A stretch of 45,980 nt of DNA from a virus (lineage: Duplodnaviria > Heunggongvirae > Uroviricota > Caudoviricetes): the IMG/VR virus record IMGVR_UViG_2529292882_000016; one strand, given 5' to 3'. A model generated the notes under the pieces. The model was given only the letters and a program-made list of their open reading frames with translations, did not search any database and was not told the origin of the DNA. A program made the position numbers and the translations under genes. Below are positions 1,845-36,124 of this stretch, piece after piece; the stretch's first letter is position 1, and every line of letters begins with the position of its first letter.

Positions 1845-4800
1845 TTACTCGATGCGCACAAACAGGCAGATACGACCGCTTGTTCCGTAAGAGTCCCTGA
1901 CCCCGGATAACGCCATATAACGCCCCGGAAAAGTGTACCCTGTTGCTCCTGCACTTGGTGTTGAACCGTAAGAGCCAGGCCCGGCAGAAGATATTGTGCA
2001 CGAAAGATTAACTCCGCCCAGTTGTGACCCCTGCACCACATCACCCAGGCCAATTTTGATTTCTTTATCCCCGGAAGTTGTTCCGCGATAAACAGCCAGC
2101 ACCGGAACACCCACTGCCGGGTATTTGAAATATGAGCCTGAGCCCGCCATCCTGGACAACAGGTACGCCAGTGAATCTCCGTCGTAGACAACTACCCGCG
2201 ATGACATGTTCCAGCTGTTATCGCTGTCGTTGTACCGGTACTGCATATAGTGAATGCAGTGTTCACCCTGATAATACTGGTTGTAACACATCAGGGTTTT
2301 AAATTTGCGGACTGTGTCAGATTCACTGTTGGCGTACGGGGACCACATCACGTCAATAATGCCGTTAAATTGCGTGGTACCGGTAAGCAGTTGTGATGAA
2401 TCTGTAATACTGACCGCATACCGCCCCGGCGTGACTTTCTTCAGCCATTCAACGAAATCAGACAGTCCCTCAAACGCCAGGGCTTCAGTGCTGGTAAATG
2501 CCTGACCAAATCCATGCATGCCGGACAGTGCCAGCCTGCCCGGTGTGCGGTCGCGGATATCACTCTGGGGTTCCATCGTCGCAGCCGCTTTCAGTTCAAG
2601 CTCCGTGCGCATGGCCTCAGGCGTGTCCAGTGCCAGTAATGCGCGGGCTTTTTCTGACAGTTGCGCCAGTAAAATCCGGCCCTCTGCACTGAAATAAGGC
2701 AGCGTGTTTTCTTCCGGTGTTATCTGGCTGACAGCCGTTAACACGTCATTAAGCGGCTGTTTACCTGCCAGTGCTTTAGTGACCGTTGTCGCAAAGTTCG
2801 GGTCATTACCCAGCGCCGCTGCCAGCTCGTTCAGCGTGTCCAGGGCTTCAGGTGATGAGTCAACCAGCGCAGCAAGCAGTTTGCGGACAAACTCCGCATT
2901 GGCTATTTCATTACCTGCTGCATCATCCGGCGGGGTTGGCGCGGACGGAGTTCCGGTCAGTGCCGGACTTTTCAGTGGCGCGCGGGCTTCAATCAGCGCA
3001 ATAAGTGAAGCCTCATCAACCTTCAGGTTTTCCCAGCCAACCAGAAAACCACCATCTGATGACACCGCGCAACGGTTATAATAAATATGACCATTAACAC
3101 CGTAATAAATAATTATCTTATAGGCATACTCATCATTCGGGCTGGTTTTAGGTTGTGGCCAGATAATTTCAATAACACCGTTTGTCTGAATGCCTGGCAC
3201 TACCACATCTGTGTCTGCAAATACGGCATAACGACCGGGTTTTGCTGTTTTTACCCAGCGGAGAAAATCAGTCCCTGATTTAAACTCTGTTCTGTCGCTG
3301 AATAACATCCCGAAACCGAACATGCCAGGAATCGCCAGTCGACCTTCGGTGCGGTCGTAAATATTCTCCTGTGCATCCTTCTGTGCTGCATTGCCAAGTT
3401 GTGGCGTCAGATTCGTCCAGGTGACCGGGGCGGAGATATTATCGCCACGAACGGTCATGAGTATCCGTCCGTCTTTTCCAAAAAACAGAACCAGCTTTGT
3501 TGCTGTCTGGCTTGTTTTGTCGCCCCAGCCATTATCCAGCCAGATAATTTCTGTTATTCCGGTTGTTTCTTCCGTTTGCGTGGAAAAGGTGTAATACCGT
3601 CCCGGGTGCAGGTTGTGCGCAGTTCTGGCTACAGTCGCCATATCGCTGGCAATAATTGCCGTACTTCCGGCGTCCGTCATTCCGTAACCAAATGCACCAG
3701 GTAGCGCAACACGGCCTTCCGAGCTGTCGTAAAGGTCTGTCTGAATGTCCCTTACCGCTGCGCTTTTCAGCTCAAGCTCATTGCGCATGGTTTCCACTGT
3801 GGCCTGTGCCAGCAGTGACCGGGCTTTTTCTGACAGTGGAGACAGTGAAGCATTTCCGTCCTGATTAAAGCACAGAAGATTATCTGCCCGTTCTTCCAGA
3901 TTACTGATTGCGGTTAACACGTCACTGAGTGGTTGTTTACCCGCCAGCGCGTTCATGATTGTTGTCGCAAACTCCGGGTCATTGCCCAGCGCCGCTGCCA
4001 GCTCGTTCAGTGTGTCCAGGGCTTCCGGGGACGAGTCAACCAGCGCAGCAAGCAGTTTGCGAACAAATGCCGCGTTCGCCATCTCCAGCCCGGTCGCATC
4101 GTCCGGTGGGGTTGGTGTGGTTGGCGTGCCGGTGAACGCCGGGCTGTCCAGCGGCGCTTTTGTTTTCGTCTCGTCCATGACGGTTTTGACGGCCTTCGGT
4201 GTGGCTGCCAGTTCTTCGCTGTCGTTATCCGTATCACTACAGAGTTGCACCAGGCCTTTTTCTGTCGTGGAAGCATTGCTTCCCTTCAGGTCATCAACTA
4301 TCCGTTGCGCCTCGTCCCTGTGCTGTTTCGCACCCTGCTCGCTTTTTGCAGCCGCTTCGGCGCTGGCTTTTGCCTCACCGGTCAGCGTTGCGGCATCAGC
4401 AAGTTTATCGACCGCTTTCTGGACTATCGCGTCAGCATCCTTGACAGCCTGTTCTGCGCGGGCGGCATCCTGTGTGGCAGATGATGCCAGCTGTGCCACC
4501 TGCTTTTTATCTTCGGCAACGGCTTCTGCATTCTGCTGTACGTTATCCGCCAGCGTCTCGCAGTCGCTCTTGATTTGTTGCGCATCAGCGACATGTTGCC
4601 CGGCCTGTTGTTCGCTTTCCGCTGCCGCTTCCGCGCTCTGCTGCGCCTGCGCCACCATTTCCTCAAAGCGTTTCACCACGTCGGGTTTGAGGTCGCCTTC
4701 ATCAAGGGCAGTCAGAAAGTCGTTCAGCGTGCCGGGCCTGGAGTCGTCGTATACAGCAATGTCGCCAACACAGTACTCATCGCGCCAGTCCTGTCTCAGA

Positions 4801-32953: not shown

Positions 32954-33044
32954 GCAAATGTTCTTGGATGTTACTGGCTTACTTCTTTTGTGAAGTTGCC
33001 TTTACTAACGTTGAGCGAGCCGGGTCACTCCCCGGCTTTTTTTT
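32954..33044 (+). ncRNA. Candidate OOP-like antisense small RNA (~90 nt)
   Basis: Promoter-like -35 TTGAAA (32917..32922), 18-bp spacer, -10 TATTTT (32941..32946), ending in terminator GCCGGG-TCACTC-CCCGGC plus T8 (33019..33044); plus strand in an intergenic gap of the minus-strand operon. Confidence 0.25.
33019..33044 (+). terminator. Rho-independent terminator (GCCGGG/CCCGGC stem plus T8) on the plus strand
   Basis: Hairpin and eight T residues read directly; no plus-strand protein gene lies upstream. Confidence 0.55.
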
Positions 33045-33793
33045 CACCGCTGCCAACCAATAACCTGAAATAACCCCATTTTCGGGTGATACCAGCGAGT
33101 CCCTCGCGGTTCTGCTTCCTCCATAACCCGATAAAAAGCAGCCATAAACGGTTCCACAGCAACAATTGCGCGACGTGATAACAATCCGTCCGGCGTCATA
33201 AACTCGTGGGTATCTGTAGGAATTTGATAGGCGTTCACCAGATTGCGGCATTTATCATCTGACAAACCGGTTTTTGCTTTCAGTTGGCGATATCCGGCAT
33301 AGCCCTCACGAATGGTACCCCTTTTGATTTGCTCAACTGTTTCGGCAACATGGCTGACTTTTTCTTCCACCTGAGTGATCCGTTTCTGCTGACGAACGGC
33401 TTCAAGAGCCATCGCAGCAACCATTTCGATTTCGCTCATTGGCTTACGGATCTGTTCTTCCAGTTCGCGCCAGCGATCTACCAGGCGAGCAGTGAATTCA
33501 GGACAGAGCTGTGCGACGACAATGATGCTGTCTCGCTTACCTTGTTCTCCTTCAAACAGGTAATGCTCATATTGAACTTTAAAACCTAAGTTATTGATTT
33601 TCTCGGAAACAGCCATTGGCGGTTTCCGGATGATGTTTTTAGCAACCAGGCGTTCGATACTACGTTTAACATCTGAGTGCTGACTACCCACCAGCTCTGC
33701 GATCTCAACGCTGGTCATGGATGCTTTATCGTTAAAAATTGCGGTGTTCACTGCCATCTCCTTACGGATAAATTCTTTTGAGATTCCGCACAT
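33044..33793 (-). CDS. Rha-family phage regulatory protein (249 aa; start uncertain)
   Basis: N-terminal MTSVEIAELVGSQHSDVKRSIERL typical of the Rha family; candidate starts at 33793 and 33757. Confidence 0.65.
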   Translation of the reverse strand: MCGISKEFIRKEMAVNTAIFNDKASMTSVEIAELVGSQHSDVKRSIERLVAKNIIRKPPMAVSEKINNLGFKVQYEHYLFEGEQGKRDSIIVVAQLCPEFTARLVDRWRELEEQIRKPMSEIEMVAAMALEAVRQQKRITQVEEKVSHVAETVEQIKRGTIREGYAGYRQLKAKTGLSDDKCRNLVNAYQIPTDTHEFMTPDGLLSRRAIVAVEPFMAAFYRVMEEAEPRGTRWYHPKMGLFQVIGWQR

Positions 33794-33870
33794 TCGTACT
33801 TGTTGGTGCCGAACCTTCCTTCCGTTATCCTTTTGATCCCTATAAACAAAAGAACCAAAGGAGGTTCGAC

Positions 33871-34326
33871 ATGAATTTAATGAACGTCTATGAAAAAATT
33901 GAGAATCACCTACTAGCTATCTATAAAATCAGCCCACACGATCGTGAGACGGGTAACTTGGTAAAATGCAGAGCAGTCAAACTAACTCAGCTTTATTTAC
34001 TTGTTTACAAACACGCCAATACCTCATTTATCAGGTCCAGCCATAAGATCTCGTTATCAGAATTGATATACACAGCAAGTGGTAAGTTAATTGCAGAACC
34101 ACAATCTGTTCCCCCAGCACTTGTTCTTCTCATCCTAAAAGAACAGCTTAATCAGCTTGCAAATGACCCCGACAATCTGCTTGTTGGAGTAGAGAACAAG
34201 CTGAAAGAATGGCTTTTTGAGCGCCTTGAATGGCACCAACAACTTTGTTCAGAGTTGCCAACTCTTCCTGAATTGCGCTGGAGTGATCTTCCGAATGAAT
34301 TATTTGGTCTGAAACAAGAAAGCTGA
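33871..34326 (+). CDS. Hypothetical AT-rich protein (151 aa), opposite orientation within the early region
   Basis: Strong RBS AAGGAGG 6 nt upstream of ATG 33871; followed by a 12-bp perfect hairpin at 34349..34380. Confidence 0.5.
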   Translation: MNLMNVYEKIENHLLAIYKISPHDRETGNLVKCRAVKLTQLYLLVYKHANTSFIRSSHKISLSELIYTASGKLIAEPQSVPPALVLLILKEQLNQLANDPDNLLVGVENKLKEWLFERLEWHQQLCSELPTLPELRWSDLPNELFGLKQES

Positions 34327-34540
34327 TTCTGGGTTCTAAATCTTTCAATACAGAGCGCAGCGAATGCTCTGCGCTCTGTAGTTTCAACAAGGTGTGTTCG
34401 GTCGCCAAACCAGCAATTTCTGCATTGTTAGCCAAGTGAATAATCCATTCACGCAGTTCACTAGGTGTAAGATCCCCTGCATTGATACATGGAGCCTTTT
34501 TCACTGCTTCATTATTACTATGCTGCATATCTCTTCCCAT
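34148..34540 (-). CDS. Hypothetical protein (130 aa) coupled to the cro-like gene; 3' half overlaps the plus-strand gene
   Basis: ATG at 34540 overlaps the stop of the upstream cro-like ORF; 179-nt antisense overlap with 33871..34326 makes its full extent doubtful. Confidence 0.3.
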   Translation of the reverse strand: MGRDMQHSNNEAVKKAPCINAGDLTPSELREWIIHLANNAEIAGLATEHTLLKLQSAEHSLRSVLKDLEPRISFLVSDQIIHSEDHSSAIQEELATLNKVVGAIQGAQKAILSACSLLQQADCRGHLQAD

Positions 34541-34749
34541 CACTTCTCATCCTCTGTGTGCGCTAAGCTTGGATGTGTATATGGAATGTTCGGATCCAGA
34601 TGGCAGAGAATGGCAACATCCTCCGGAACGCCCCGCGTTTTCCACTTTCCAACTCCCTGACTACCACGAGGCCTTCCTTTCTTTGGGAACCTGCGGCCAA
34701 TAGCGGCATTGGTCTTAAATTGAGTTTTTAATATTTCATAAAGGGTCAT
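34540..34749 (-). CDS. Cro-like small regulator (69 aa)
   Basis: First gene leftward of the divergent promoter region opposite the cI-like gene; basic; GAGG RBS. No sequence similarity to lambda Cro recognised. Confidence 0.4.
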   Translation of the reverse strand: MTLYEILKTQFKTNAAIGRRFPKKGRPRGSQGVGKWKTRGVPEDVAILCHLDPNIPYTHPSLAHTEDEK

Positions 34750-34759
34750 TCTTTAGCCT

Positions 34760-34840
34760 CACACTGGATACTCTGTTATCCAAGAATGTTAAACGCGAGA
34801 ACCCAAAGTATCAAGAAATTCTGTTACTTTAGTATCAGCA
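34760..34840. promoter_or_regulatory. Divergent promoter/operator region (OR-like) with repeated GTATC/GATAC half-sites
   Basis: GGATACTCTGTTATCC (34766..34781), AGTATCA at 34807 and 34831, TCTGTTAC at 34822; between the divergently transcribed cro-like and cI-like genes. Confidence 0.4.
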
Positions 34841-34860
34841 GCCATGAAAGGAGAAGAAAA

Positions 34861-35517
34861 ATGAAATCTTTAGGTGAACGCCTCATCAACGCACGACAAA
34901 AAGCTGGGTTAACGCAAGATGCGTTGGCTAAAAAAGCAGGGGTCACCAGAGTTGCAATCAGTAAAGCCGAGCAAGGCCTTACAAAAAGTTTCAACGGTGA
35001 CACCCTTTTTAAAGTCGCAGCTGCACTGCAGTGTTCACCGCAGTGGCTTCAGAACGGAGATGAAAAAGATAAGCATTGGGAAAATAATGTTAAGAGCTGC
35101 CCACAGAGAGACACAGCACACTCTTACCCTGTAATTAACTGGGTTCAGGCAGGATTATTCGCAACTGCTGGTGATGACTACAACATGTATGATCAGGATA
35201 ATTGGAGGCATTCTGTAAAATACGCTGGTGAGAGGGGGTTCTGGCTGGAAGTGCACGGAGACTCAATGACTTCGCCCGTAGGAATAACATTTCCTGAAGG
35301 AATGTCGATCCTTGTCAACCCAGATAAAGAAGTTTTTTCAGGGTGTTACGTCATCGCCAGAAAAAAATCTACCAATGAAGCAACATTCAAAAAATATATT
35401 TCTGAAATGGGAAAGGCGTTTCTAAAGCCCCTTAATCCACAATATCCAATCATAGAAATGGACAATGATTGCGAAATAGTAGGTGTTGTGGTTGATGCCA
35501 GGTGGGATATTTTCTGA
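34861..35517 (+). CDS. cI-type repressor, HTH plus LexA-like S24 peptidase domain (218 aa from ATG 34861)
   Basis: N-terminal HTH (LTQDALAKKAGVTRVAISKAEQG) and C-terminal S24-like region (WLEVHGDSMTSPVGITFPEGM...VIARKK...); AAGGAG RBS. Confidence 0.85.
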   Translation: MKSLGERLINARQKAGLTQDALAKKAGVTRVAISKAEQGLTKSFNGDTLFKVAAALQCSPQWLQNGDEKDKHWENNVKSCPQRDTAHSYPVINWVQAGLFATAGDDYNMYDQDNWRHSVKYAGERGFWLEVHGDSMTSPVGITFPEGMSILVNPDKEVFSGCYVIARKKSTNEATFKKYISEMGKAFLKPLNPQYPIIEMDNDCEIVGVVVDARWDIF

Positions 35518-35620: not shown

Positions 35621-36124
35621 ATGATCAATAAAGCTACAACTCTTGACTGTCTCGAAGAACTGAAAAACCTCGGCAGCCTCATTACACTAATAGCAAAAGC
35701 AACACCAGATGCTACGCTCTCTAGCGATATAGAGTCATGCGCAGGACTGGCATGGGATATGACAAATAGCATATCCAGAAAGCTATCGTCAGCAATGCTT
35801 TTACAGAACAAAAATTCTGCAATCAACAACCGTCTTCGCACCCAACGCGAAGACTGCGGCTTAACAACAGCCGAACTCGCCAGACTGCTCGACCTCGATG
35901 AAGAAATCATCATCCAGTGGGAAAGCGGAGAGCACGAACCAACCATCAGCATGCTTATCCCTCTGGCTAATGTTCTTGGCTGTGATCCGATGTGGCTGTT
36001 AACTGGCGAGGTTACTCCTCCGGAGCAACCAAAAAGTGAGGAGCAGCAACACCATGACGCATCTCAACAAGTTTGCTCCTTATCTCGCGAAGCTCTTCTA
36101 CGGAAGAACCAATACCAATGGTGA
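35621..36124 (+). CDS. XRE-family HTH protein (167 aa)
   Basis: HTH segment LTTAELARLLDLDEEIIIQWESGEHEPTISMLIPLANVLGCDPMWLLTG; GAGGT RBS; first gene after the OL-like region. Confidence 0.6.
   Translation: MINKATTLDCLEELKNLGSLITLIAKATPDATLSSDIESCAGLAWDMTNSISRKLSSAMLLQNKNSAINNRLRTQREDCGLTTAELARLLDLDEEIIIQWESGEHEPTISMLIPLANVLGCDPMWLLTGEVTPPEQPKSEEQQHHDASQQVCSLSREALLRKNQYQW

Follow-up and report, generated by a model that had tools for sequence, protein, structure and literature searches.

Does the immunity region of this temperate phage carry two genuine protein-coding genes that share the same DNA on opposite strands, or is one of the two overlapping ORFs spurious? The question arises from a 45,980-nt stretch of Caudoviricetes DNA (IMG/VR record IMGVR_UViG_2529292882_000016, referred to here as the window). 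In it, a first-pass annotation based on the sequence alone had noted an AT-rich plus-strand ORF with an ideal ribosome-binding site, a minus-strand ORF coupled to a cro-like gene and overlapping the 3′ end of the former by 179 nt, and a perfect 12-bp hairpin downstream. We first verified these features and found that every one of them is present as described. The annotation offered two alternatives, namely that one ORF is spurious or that this is a convergent overlapping pair with potential for mutual regulation, and proposed that the plus gene is a lysogeny-expressed moron. As detailed below, this interpretation is only partly supported: the convergent pair is strongly supported, the moron reading holds in part, and mutual regulation remains an inference. 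The features of the locus are collected in Table 1.

Table 1. Features of the antisense gene module and its neighbors (window coordinates).
Position	Strand	Feature	Details
33044..33751	-	Rha-family regulator	Next gene of the early-right operon after the module; Pfam Phage_pRha; PGAP annotation in relatives gives a 708-nt gene
33803..33831	+	Promoter-like element of the plus gene	TTGGTG (33803-33808), 17-nt spacer CCGAACCTTCCTTCCGT, TATCCT (33826-33831); function inferred only
33809..33870	+	Conserved leader	Distal arm CCGAACCTTCC (33809-33819) complementary to the SD region GGAGGTTCG(AC) (33860-33870)
33858..33864	+	Shine-Dalgarno sequence of the plus gene	AAGGAGG, 6 nt before the ATG
33871..34326	+	Plus-family gene	151 aa; ATG at 33871, stop at 34324-34326; all-helical; conserved C-terminal motif LPEL.W.DLP.ELF; belongs to an undescribed protein family
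34148..34326	.	Dual-coding segment	179 nt, 59 codons of each gene; codon position 1 faces position 1, positions 2 and 3 face positions 3 and 2
34148..34543	-	Minus-family gene	131 aa from the GTG start, or 130 aa from the ATG start (34148-34540); the ATG overlaps the TGA of the cro-like gene as TGATG; predicted as three helices
34349..34380	.	Perfect 12-bp hairpin	TACAGAGCGCAG (34349-34360), 8-nt loop CGAATGCT (34361-34368), CTGCGCTCTGTA (34369-34380); starts 23 nt after the plus stop, inside the minus coding sequence (codons LQSAEHSLRSVL)
34540..34749	-	Cro-like gene, first of the early-right operon	69 aa; phrog_4749, E = 3e-49; divergent from the repressor gene; "cro-like" rests on position only
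34861..35517	+	CI/LexA-type repressor	HTH_3 plus Peptidase_S24; annotated as a LexA family protein in relatives

To determine whether both ORFs are maintained, we searched for loci that carry homologs of either protein. Distant homologs of both proteins (43% and 57% identity) were found, and the two families occur together in 13 deeply diverged lineages of E. coli, Salmonella, and Serratia prophages, in which the plus protein shares 20 to 55% identity. In every locus that carries a full-length plus-family gene, both ORFs are intact and overlap antisense, and the 13 lineages all share one phase, with overlaps of 179 to 272 nt. Finding homologous prophages with only one intact frame had been named beforehand as the outcome that would count against a real pair, and the comparison came out in favor of the pair. 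The only exceptions are three loci, designated L042, L043a, and L056, in which the plus gene was deleted or decayed and the minus gene stayed, whereas the plus gene was never found without an intact minus gene.

The overlap is far more than expected by chance. Across the 13 lineages, there are no stops in about 970 overlap codons, while in the same antisense phase just outside the overlap, 6 to 7% of codons are stops (70 of 1009 and 48 of 801). Synonymous shuffling gave a product of P values of about 1e-13 with the plus protein held fixed and about 1e-20 with the minus protein held fixed. It should be noted that the single-lineage P values are only 0.002 to 0.34 and that the lineages are not fully independent.

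To examine selection on each frame, substitution rates were compared outside and inside the overlap. Both non-overlap parts show normal coding periodicity, with codon-position rates of 0.49/0.39/0.63. Outside the overlap, dN/dS of the plus gene is 0.16 to 0.60 where dS is not saturated, and that of the minus gene, measured over the first 60 to 72 codons, which lie outside the plus gene, is 0.18 to 0.45 in most measurable comparisons. Within the overlap, the codon-position rates are flattened to 0.36/0.37/0.41. In most comparisons, dS is saturated outside the overlap and two- to fourfold lower inside it, in both frames, although in the closest pair of loci (L005-L018) it is not reduced. An overlapping-gene test pooled over five independent sister pairs gave a dNN/dSN of 0.64 (CI 0.46-0.90, P = 0.004) and a dNN/dNS of 0.66 (CI 0.48-0.93, P = 0.008), which supports purifying selection on each frame, even though one pairwise comparison gave a minus-frame dNN/dNS of 1.29.

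These data bear directly on the possibility that only the minus gene is real and that the plus ORF is a chance ORF or a noncoding, oop-like antisense transcript. In favor of this view, RefSeq annotates only the minus gene (WP_074398084.1 in the closest genome) in the two E. coli records inspected, the minus gene persists alone in the three loci above, and in L042 only the leader plus a 35-codon ORF remains, such that antisense transcription alone could be the selected feature. However, the plus family comprises 21 diverged clusters among 1.84 billion representative proteins, aligned over their full length, with conserved length, start, an invariant strong Shine-Dalgarno sequence, and a conserved C-terminal motif. 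Together with the coding periodicity of its non-overlap part, the frame that is open in all 13 lineages, and the dNN/dSN value, this makes the minus-only reading very unlikely.

The converse, that only the plus gene is real and the minus ORF is an artefactual open frame, is more unlikely still. Gene callers did choose only the plus gene at L006-L012, L061, and L063, and the shuffle P values with the plus protein fixed are individually weak (0.02-0.34). Against this, the minus gene has a conserved, coding non-overlap part, exists without the plus gene in three loci, forms 14 clusters in E. coli and Salmonella, and matches phrog_37051, a family without a known function (E = 5.4e-37; residues 15-125 against profile positions 2-112 of 137). 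Stop-start coupling in the window, or GGAGG-type Shine-Dalgarno sequences in other lineages, precede it. In addition, the AlphaFold2 model of the minus protein has a mean pLDDT of 76, with the overlap-encoded helix (residues 84-129) at about 90. The corresponding model of the plus protein, built from a four-sequence alignment, is poor (pLDDT 43).

A third possibility is that both genes are real but that the shared DNA is only nominally dual-coding, with a functional minus protein that ends near residue 100 to 110, a tolerated tail dictated by the plus frame, and an overlap that is a by-product of genome compaction with no regulatory role. The last 18 to 30 codons of the minus ORF appear unconstrained in their own frame. 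In the 18 codons that overlap in the long versions but not in the window, rates follow the plus frame only (plus positions 2 and 3 at 0.26 and 0.62). The minus C-termini are low-complexity and vary in length (118-161 aa), and the window's own minus ORF stops 54 to 57 nt earlier than most. True dual constraint therefore covers about 40 to 50 codons rather than the full overlap. Nevertheless, these codons show constraint in both frames, minus positions L94, L97, Q108, I111, and L118 are conserved and lie in the high-confidence predicted helix, and the overlap has never been resolved in 13 lineages despite divergence to 20 to 30% identity. We consider this reading unlikely, although it is the strongest of the alternatives.

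Alternatively, conservation in the overlap could reflect a nucleic acid element, such as an RNA duplex, a processing site, or a recombination boundary. About 50 nt at the plus C-terminus is almost invariant at all codon positions, a hairpin lies nearby, and mosaic boundaries occur at the module edges. However, both ORFs stay open well beyond the conserved 50 nt, in sequence that has diverged freely, the constraint alternates between plus-dominated and minus-dominated segments along the overlap, and the hairpin is absent in 6 of 13 lineages. Moreover, where the plus gene is lost, exactly the plus-driven residues relax: the minus residues that face the plus W.DLP motif change from HSEDHSS to RSEEHFS or FPKEQYG, while QII and AIQ.EL stay. 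This explanation is thus very improbable.

We next examined the sequences that could govern expression. The plus gene is preceded by a near-invariant leader. In an alignment of 14 leaders, TGGTG, CGAACC, and TA..CT of the promoter-like element are invariant, as is AGGAGGTTC at the Shine-Dalgarno sequence, and lineages with a 19-nt spacer have a TGn extended -10. The element is a weak consensus match, and a scanner that requires at least four of six matches per hexamer did not detect it. An alternative 5-bp hairpin, GAACC/GGTTC, flanks the Shine-Dalgarno sequence. The leader, whose distal arm is complementary to the Shine-Dalgarno region, folds at -26.4 kcal/mol (z = -3.9). The same helix is predicted in 12 of 13 lineages and in leaders that precede other cassette genes. 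RNAalifold gave 13 pairs, none with a change on both sides, and so the helix is not proven by covariation; no Rfam match was found in 33600-34900. A lambda boxB/nut site was rejected for the leader hairpin, as the loop is not GNRA-like and the orientation is unclear.

The 12-bp hairpin is the only perfect short-range inverted repeat of this length in the window, where we estimate that roughly 0.02 would be expected by chance (46,000 positions × 8 loop sizes × 4^-12). Its folding z-score is -2.4 on the plus strand and -4.0 on the minus strand. Seven of the 12 bp are GC, but the tails, GTTTCAACAA on the plus strand and TTGAAAGATT on the minus strand, contain no U-tract. A terminator scan did not call the hairpin and found no plus-strand terminator in 33500-34900. 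A hairpin at the equivalent place occurs in 7 of 13 lineages, in two unrelated sequence types. A bidirectional intrinsic terminator was therefore rejected, also because the hairpin lies inside the minus coding sequence.

To seek relatives of known function, both proteins were compared with several databases. Neither has a credible Pfam or NCBIfam match (only subthreshold hits at E of about 0.08), the plus family has no PHROG match, and none of 20 plus-family members matched a PADLOC anti-phage defense profile. Two scans of GTDB genome contigs with plus-family alignments returned no confirmed relatives, and scans of viral contigs with three single proteins returned nothing. A PDB sequence search gave only chance-level matches, and a Foldseek search of the PDB with the minus model gave only generic helical hairpins (best E = 0.22). 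An F-box or a beta-clamp-binding motif was considered for the plus C-terminal motif but rests on resemblance only and was set aside. Literature searches for the RefSeq accessions and for YdaS/YdaT found no description of this gene pair.

Taken together, we are confident that window positions 33803-34543 hold a self-contained, mobile module of Enterobacterales temperate phages, in which the 3′ thirds to halves of two protein-coding genes (59 codons here, 63-90 in other lineages) are written in the same DNA in a fixed antisense phase. The analysis establishes that the ORFs are conserved and intact, that each has its own translation start signals, that both are under purifying selection outside and inside the overlap, and that they are inherited and exchanged together. 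In contrast, the expression of either protein, the way in which the genes affect each other, and their biochemical functions are matters of inference. Our current hypothesis is that the minus gene is translated from the early-right (cro) transcript by stop-start coupling and that the plus gene is transcribed head-on against this operon from its own leader. Since the two mRNAs would be complementary over 180 to 270 nt and the polymerases would converge, expression of one should depress the other, as a protein-coding counterpart of lambda oop versus cII. The plus protein would then be favored when pR is repressed in the lysogen and the minus protein after induction, although in Serratia the context is reversed, with the minus gene downstream of cI, and no single lysogenic versus lytic assignment fits all lineages. 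In this view, the hairpin would act as a 3′-end or processing structure. A more far-reaching and tentative possibility is that the module is an obligate sense-antisense protein pair in which the overlap itself is the device, with convergent transcription and the mRNA duplex making the two proteins mutually exclusive and one marking the repressed prophage and the other the induced state, for example as alternative exclusion or host-control functions or as a protein-coding toxin/antidote-like pair. If so, the plus gene would be a protein-coding equivalent of oop RNA, and this would be one of the evolutionarily oldest and best-supported antisense gene overlaps in bacteria or their phages.

The closest precedent is the overlap of olg1/olg2 with gene 10 in the B3-like Pseudomonas phage Fc02 (PMC9936078). 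There too, in the lysis-lysogeny region of a temperate phage, the gene right after the cro/ner-like gene on the lytic strand overlaps antisense a protein-coding gene on the repressor strand, and both products were shown to be made and to exclude superinfecting phages. By analogy, superinfection exclusion is the leading guess for the module described here. However, no sequence similarity was detected, as tblastn of both window proteins against 50,697 phage records hit only one Rac-like phage. The Fc02 forward-strand genes lie on the repressor transcript and are small (7.9 and 20.7 kDa), whereas the overlap here is a 3′-3′ convergent one between two proteins of about 15 kDa. Deep evolutionary conservation of the Fc02 overlap was not part of that study.

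As with lambda oop and cII (PMC5869508), a leftward transcript, here inferred, would start downstream of an early-right gene and be complementary to the 3′ end of that gene; P22 sar/ant is a similar case. In Rac-like relatives, the module sits exactly where oop sits, between the CII-equivalent (YdaT) and the replication genes. It is not the pRE analog in these phages, where pRE933P and the YdaT operator lie between ydaS and ydaT. In contrast to oop, a 77-nt noncoding RNA with an intrinsic terminator, the putative transcript carries a conserved 151-aa ORF, has no canonical terminator, and faces a different gene. Type I toxin-antitoxin pairs such as txpA/RatA and bsrG/SR4 of Bacillus prophages are likewise convergent, 3′-overlapping units inherited together, and here too one partner (the minus gene) can persist alone while the other is never found alone. 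However, both partners here are protein-coding genes of about 130 to 150 aa, and neither sequence has a hydrophobic stretch long enough for a membrane helix, the models being of soluble helical proteins.

Claims of antisense overlapping protein genes in bacteria and phages are contested. Those reported in E. coli O157:H7 and Pseudomonas aeruginosa (ano, nog1, laoB, and others; PMC5960689, PMC9927249, PMC8850804) also encode two proteins on opposite strands and are also systematically overlooked by annotation pipelines, but they are mostly young ORFs fully embedded in a conserved mother gene and are supported mainly by expression data. Here, the strong evidence comes from comparative genomics alone: two similarly sized genes, each with an independent half, keep a 60- to 90-codon antisense overlap across lineages diverged to 20 to 30% identity, and natural partner-loss variants show which residues each frame constrains. 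The case also exposes a systematic annotation gap, in that PGAP and Prodigal-type callers usually record one gene or the other, and as a result, the plus family is absent from Pfam, PHROGs, and PADLOC. Given its position at the heart of the lysis-lysogeny region, the module offers a directly testable case of convergent-transcription control between two proteins.

Finally, the proposal that the plus gene is a moron is partly supported. The gene is reversed relative to the operon, has a promoter-like leader, and occupies a plus-strand slot that is presence/absence-polymorphic between otherwise collinear phages. Of 309 E. coli genomes that match the flanks, only two carry this cassette, and the others hold a 97-aa gene, a bssS-family gene, or P27p13, starting at the same nucleotide. 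However, what moves is the two-gene module rather than the plus gene alone, including a second gene that belongs to the early operon, and expression in the lysogen is presumed rather than shown. The swapped cassette in sister phages is exactly 33871-34543, and the module is found in different contexts: after cro, after YdaS/YdaT, in a Cox-type region, and downstream of cI in Serratia. The AT-richness is real but mild, with 38 to 41% GC over the plus ORF as compared to 44 to 49% in the flanks.

To establish the setting of the antisense pair, the gene order of the region was determined first. The region is the immunity region of a phiP27-like lambdoid prophage and is 98.5% identical over this stretch to E. 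coli ETEC1732. A CI/LexA-type repressor gene is followed by a cro-like gene, the minus ORF, the plus ORF, and a Rha-family gene. The sequence features described in the first-pass annotation were all found to be present, which include the ribosome-binding site AAGGAGG, a 151-aa plus ORF, a 131-aa minus ORF whose ATG overlaps the cro stop (TGATG), an antisense overlap of 179 nt, and a hairpin. The hairpin is the only perfect 12-bp short-range inverted repeat in 46 kb. The AT-richness of the plus ORF is mild, with 38-41% GC as compared to 44-49% in the flanks. A second helix-turn-helix protein, annotated as "helix-turn-helix domain-containing protein" in relatives, is encoded directly downstream of the cI-type repressor on the same strand.

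Coordinates of features in the window and in the related loci retrieved for comparison (L numbers)
Sequence	Feature	Coordinates	Strand	Product
Window	Rha-family gene	33044-33751	-
Window	Conserved leader of the plus gene	33803-33870
Window	AAGGAGG	33858-33864
Window	Plus ORF	33871-34326	+	151 aa
Window	Minus ORF	34148-34543	-	131 aa
Window	Two-gene module (segment replaced in sister phages)	33871-34543
Window	Hairpin	34349-34380
Window	Cro-like gene	34540-34749	-	69 aa
Window	CI/LexA-type repressor gene	34861-35517	+
Window	Second helix-turn-helix protein	35621-36124	+	167 aa
L002	Slot between the Rha gene and the cro-like gene	3172-3535
L003	Slot between the Rha gene and the cro-like gene	3172-3507
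L004	Slot between the Rha gene and the cro-like gene	3153-3837
L043	Tandem minus-family genes	3001-4028
L042	Variant with fused leader and ATG	3001-3433
L063/L064	Module of Serratia proteamaculans and a related Serratia assembly	2603-3239
L002	Insertion in the early-right operon	1479-2325
L061/L062	Insertion in the early-right operon	833-1694

We next asked which of the two ORFs is real. PGAP annotates only the minus ORF in the nearest genome, and the minus ORF matches phrog_37051 (E = 5e-37) whereas the plus ORF returned no match in the family searches. This might suggest that the plus ORF is spurious; however, it is not. Both proteins have distant homologues, at 43% identity for plus and 57% for minus, and when the encoding contigs were retrieved, every one carried both ORFs, intact and overlapping antisense, although the gene caller had reported only one of them in each. 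Additional loci were gathered by scans of IMG/VR, a profile search for the minus family, an exhaustive HMMER search for the plus family, and look-ups of the most distant plus-family members, from Salmonella and Serratia. Together, these gave 13 deep lineages with a plus-protein identity of 20-55% between lineages. In all 13, both ORFs are intact and the phase is identical, such that codon position 1 faces position 1 and positions 2 and 3 face 3 and 2, with overlaps of 179-272 nt. Annotation pipelines report either the plus or the minus gene at this module, apparently arbitrarily by lineage, and never both (L001, L005-L012, L044, L045, and L060-L063); only one GenBank phage record, PP818812, lists both genes. 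The plus family is therefore missing from Pfam, PHROGs, and PADLOC.

To determine whether both frames are maintained as coding sequence, several statistics were computed. Outside the overlap, the same antisense phase carries stops at 6.9% of codons opposite the plus gene (70/1009) and 6.0% opposite the minus gene (48/801), while inside the overlap there are none in about 970 codons. Resampling of synonymous codons with one protein held fixed gave per-lineage P values of 0.02-0.34 (plus fixed) and 0.002-0.16 (minus fixed), with products of about 1e-13 and 1e-20. It should be noted that the lineages are not fully independent and these products overstate the evidence somewhat. Both nonoverlapping halves show the classical coding pattern, with pairwise differences of 0.49/0.39/0.63 at positions 1/2/3, while in the overlap the pattern is flat and lower (0.36/0.37/0.41). 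Nei-Gojobori dS is saturated outside the overlap and 2-4 fold lower inside it, in both frames, in most comparisons, and outside the overlap dN/dS is 0.16-0.45 in most comparisons where dS is measurable. Lastly, an OLGenie-style count, pooled over five phylogenetically independent sister pairs, gave dNN/dSN = 0.64 (bootstrap CI 0.46-0.90, P = 0.004) for the plus frame and dNN/dNS = 0.66 (CI 0.48-0.93, P = 0.008) for the minus frame. The constraint is partitioned along the overlap. The last 18-30 minus codons follow the plus frame only, a middle stretch (minus ELATLNKVVG) follows the minus frame, and the roughly 50 nt that encode plus LPELRWSDLPNELFGL and minus FLVSDQIIHSEDHSSAIQ are nearly invariant.

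Three loci keep the minus gene after loss of the plus gene and can be considered natural experiments. In L042, a deletion or recombinant variant, the conserved leader and ATG are fused 10 nt beyond the stop of the minus gene (protein P0016) and open only a 35-codon ORF antisense to its 3' end, which could indicate that antisense transcription is kept without the plus protein. In L043, two minus-family genes lie in tandem. The first (protein P0014, 120 aa) faces only a decayed plus remnant, PVLQRSALLSELSGL, while the second still overlaps an intact 157-aa plus gene by 194 nt, which looks like a duplicated module caught in the act of losing one partner. In L056, the plus gene is truncated at its 5' end. 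In L042 and the first L043 copy, the minus residues that face the plus W.DLP motif relax (HSEDHSS becomes RSEEHFS or FPKEQYG), while QII and AIQ.EL persist. No locus has a plus gene with a broken minus frame. One near-identical minus-family protein (P0002, E. coli QT351_09075) is frameshifted after residue 102, inside the overlap, which would also break the plus frame and could be a sequencing error or a decaying copy.

The plus family consists of about 21 clusters at 50% identity, with lengths of 148-162 aa, from E. coli, Salmonella, and Serratia. It is all-helical with the conserved C-terminal motif LPEL.W.DLP.ELF. Searches of Pfam, PHROG, PADLOC, and the PDB returned no relatives, and its AlphaFold model is unreliable. 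The minus family consists of 14 clusters. Its model has a mean pLDDT of 76 and three predicted helices, of which the overlap-encoded helix 84-129 has a pLDDT of about 90 and packs on helix 47-76. Fold and sequence searches with the minus protein gave no significant match. Neither protein has a membrane-type hydrophobic segment.

The genomic context shows that the pair moves together. Of 5426 complete E. coli genomes, 309 match the flanks but only 2 carry this cassette. The slot between the Rha gene and the cro-like gene is polymorphic, and sister phages carry a 97-aa hypothetical gene, a bssS-family (biofilm regulator-like) gene, or P27p13 (also listed as phiP27 L13) on the plus strand, all beginning at exactly the same nucleotide after the shared leader. 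The replaced segment is the whole two-gene module. Elsewhere, the module is found after YdaS/YdaT and before the replication genes in Rac-like prophages, which is the position of lambda oop, directly after a cro-like gene, in a Cox-type region, and downstream of cI in Serratia. The Rac-like version occurs in 22 of 5426 E. coli genomes, again with only the minus gene annotated. In the two Serratia loci, the module lies on the other side of the switch, where the minus gene is downstream of, and co-oriented with, the cI-type repressor, the plus gene lacks the conserved leader and strong SD, and the overlap is the longest seen (272 nt). In some relatives, a TumE-family toxin, an HVO_A0114-family DNA-binding antitoxin-like pair, and a DUF4222 gene are inserted in the early-right operon, which points to a second cargo slot just downstream of the module.

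In 12 of 13 lineages, and also in front of the other, unrelated cassette genes, the 68-70 nt before the plus ATG are nearly invariant at two blocks, (T)TGGTGCCGAACCT(T)CC and AGAACC[AG]AAGGAGGTTCGAC-ATG, even though the coding sequences of these lineages have diverged below 30% identity. Besides the window, this covers the leaders of L005, L006, L012, L014, L041, L043-L046, L054, L061, and L002/L003. The first block plus the invariant TA..CT reads as a sigma-70 promoter-like element of the form TTGGTG-N17-19-(TGn)TAnnCT, with TTGGTG-N17-TATCCT here, TATAAT in L005, and TGn-extended -10 variants elsewhere. The spacer sequence CCGAACCTCC is complementary to the SD region, with 13 predicted pairs and a window z-score of -3.9, and a 5-bp GAACC/GGTTC hairpin is an alternative fold. 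However, the arms never covary, so the helix is unproven and could act in plus-sense RNA, minus-sense RNA, or DNA. A search of Rfam returned no match.

The hairpin beyond the plus gene is less conserved. A stem of at least 7 bp lies about 23-77 nt after the plus stop in 7 of 13 lineages. In five of these it is of the AGCGCAG/CTGCGCT type, built from the minus codons SAE...LRS, while in L041 and L054 it has unrelated sequences. In the other six lineages, no stem of at least 7 bp is found there. The hairpin has no U-tract on either strand and lies inside the minus coding sequence, so it is not a canonical terminator. We read it as an optional 3'-end or processing structure.

Taken together, the analysis establishes a conserved, mobile, dual-coding two-gene module, whereas the expression of the two genes and their effect on one another are inferred. 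In our working model, which we consider at best about as likely as not, the minus gene is made from the pR transcript by coupling to cro, the plus gene is transcribed head-on from its own promoter, and convergent transcription together with a 180-270-nt RNA duplex makes the two antagonistic, as with lambda oop/cII. No intrinsic terminator was found on the plus strand between 34326 and the repressor gene, and plus-sense transcripts could therefore also run antisense through cro. Of the two alternatives offered in the first-pass annotation, that one ORF is spurious or that the two form a convergent overlapping pair with potential for mutual regulation, the convergent pair is strongly supported, while the regulation remains an inference. 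Antisense overlapping gene pairs in phage switch regions are already known, and this one is supported by unusually deep comparative evidence, albeit without expression data. The closest published analogue is Pseudomonas phage Fc02, where the gene after ner overlaps antisense a gene on the repressor strand and both give superinfection exclusion. Although no homology to that system was detected, the analogy makes exclusion the leading guess for the function of the module.
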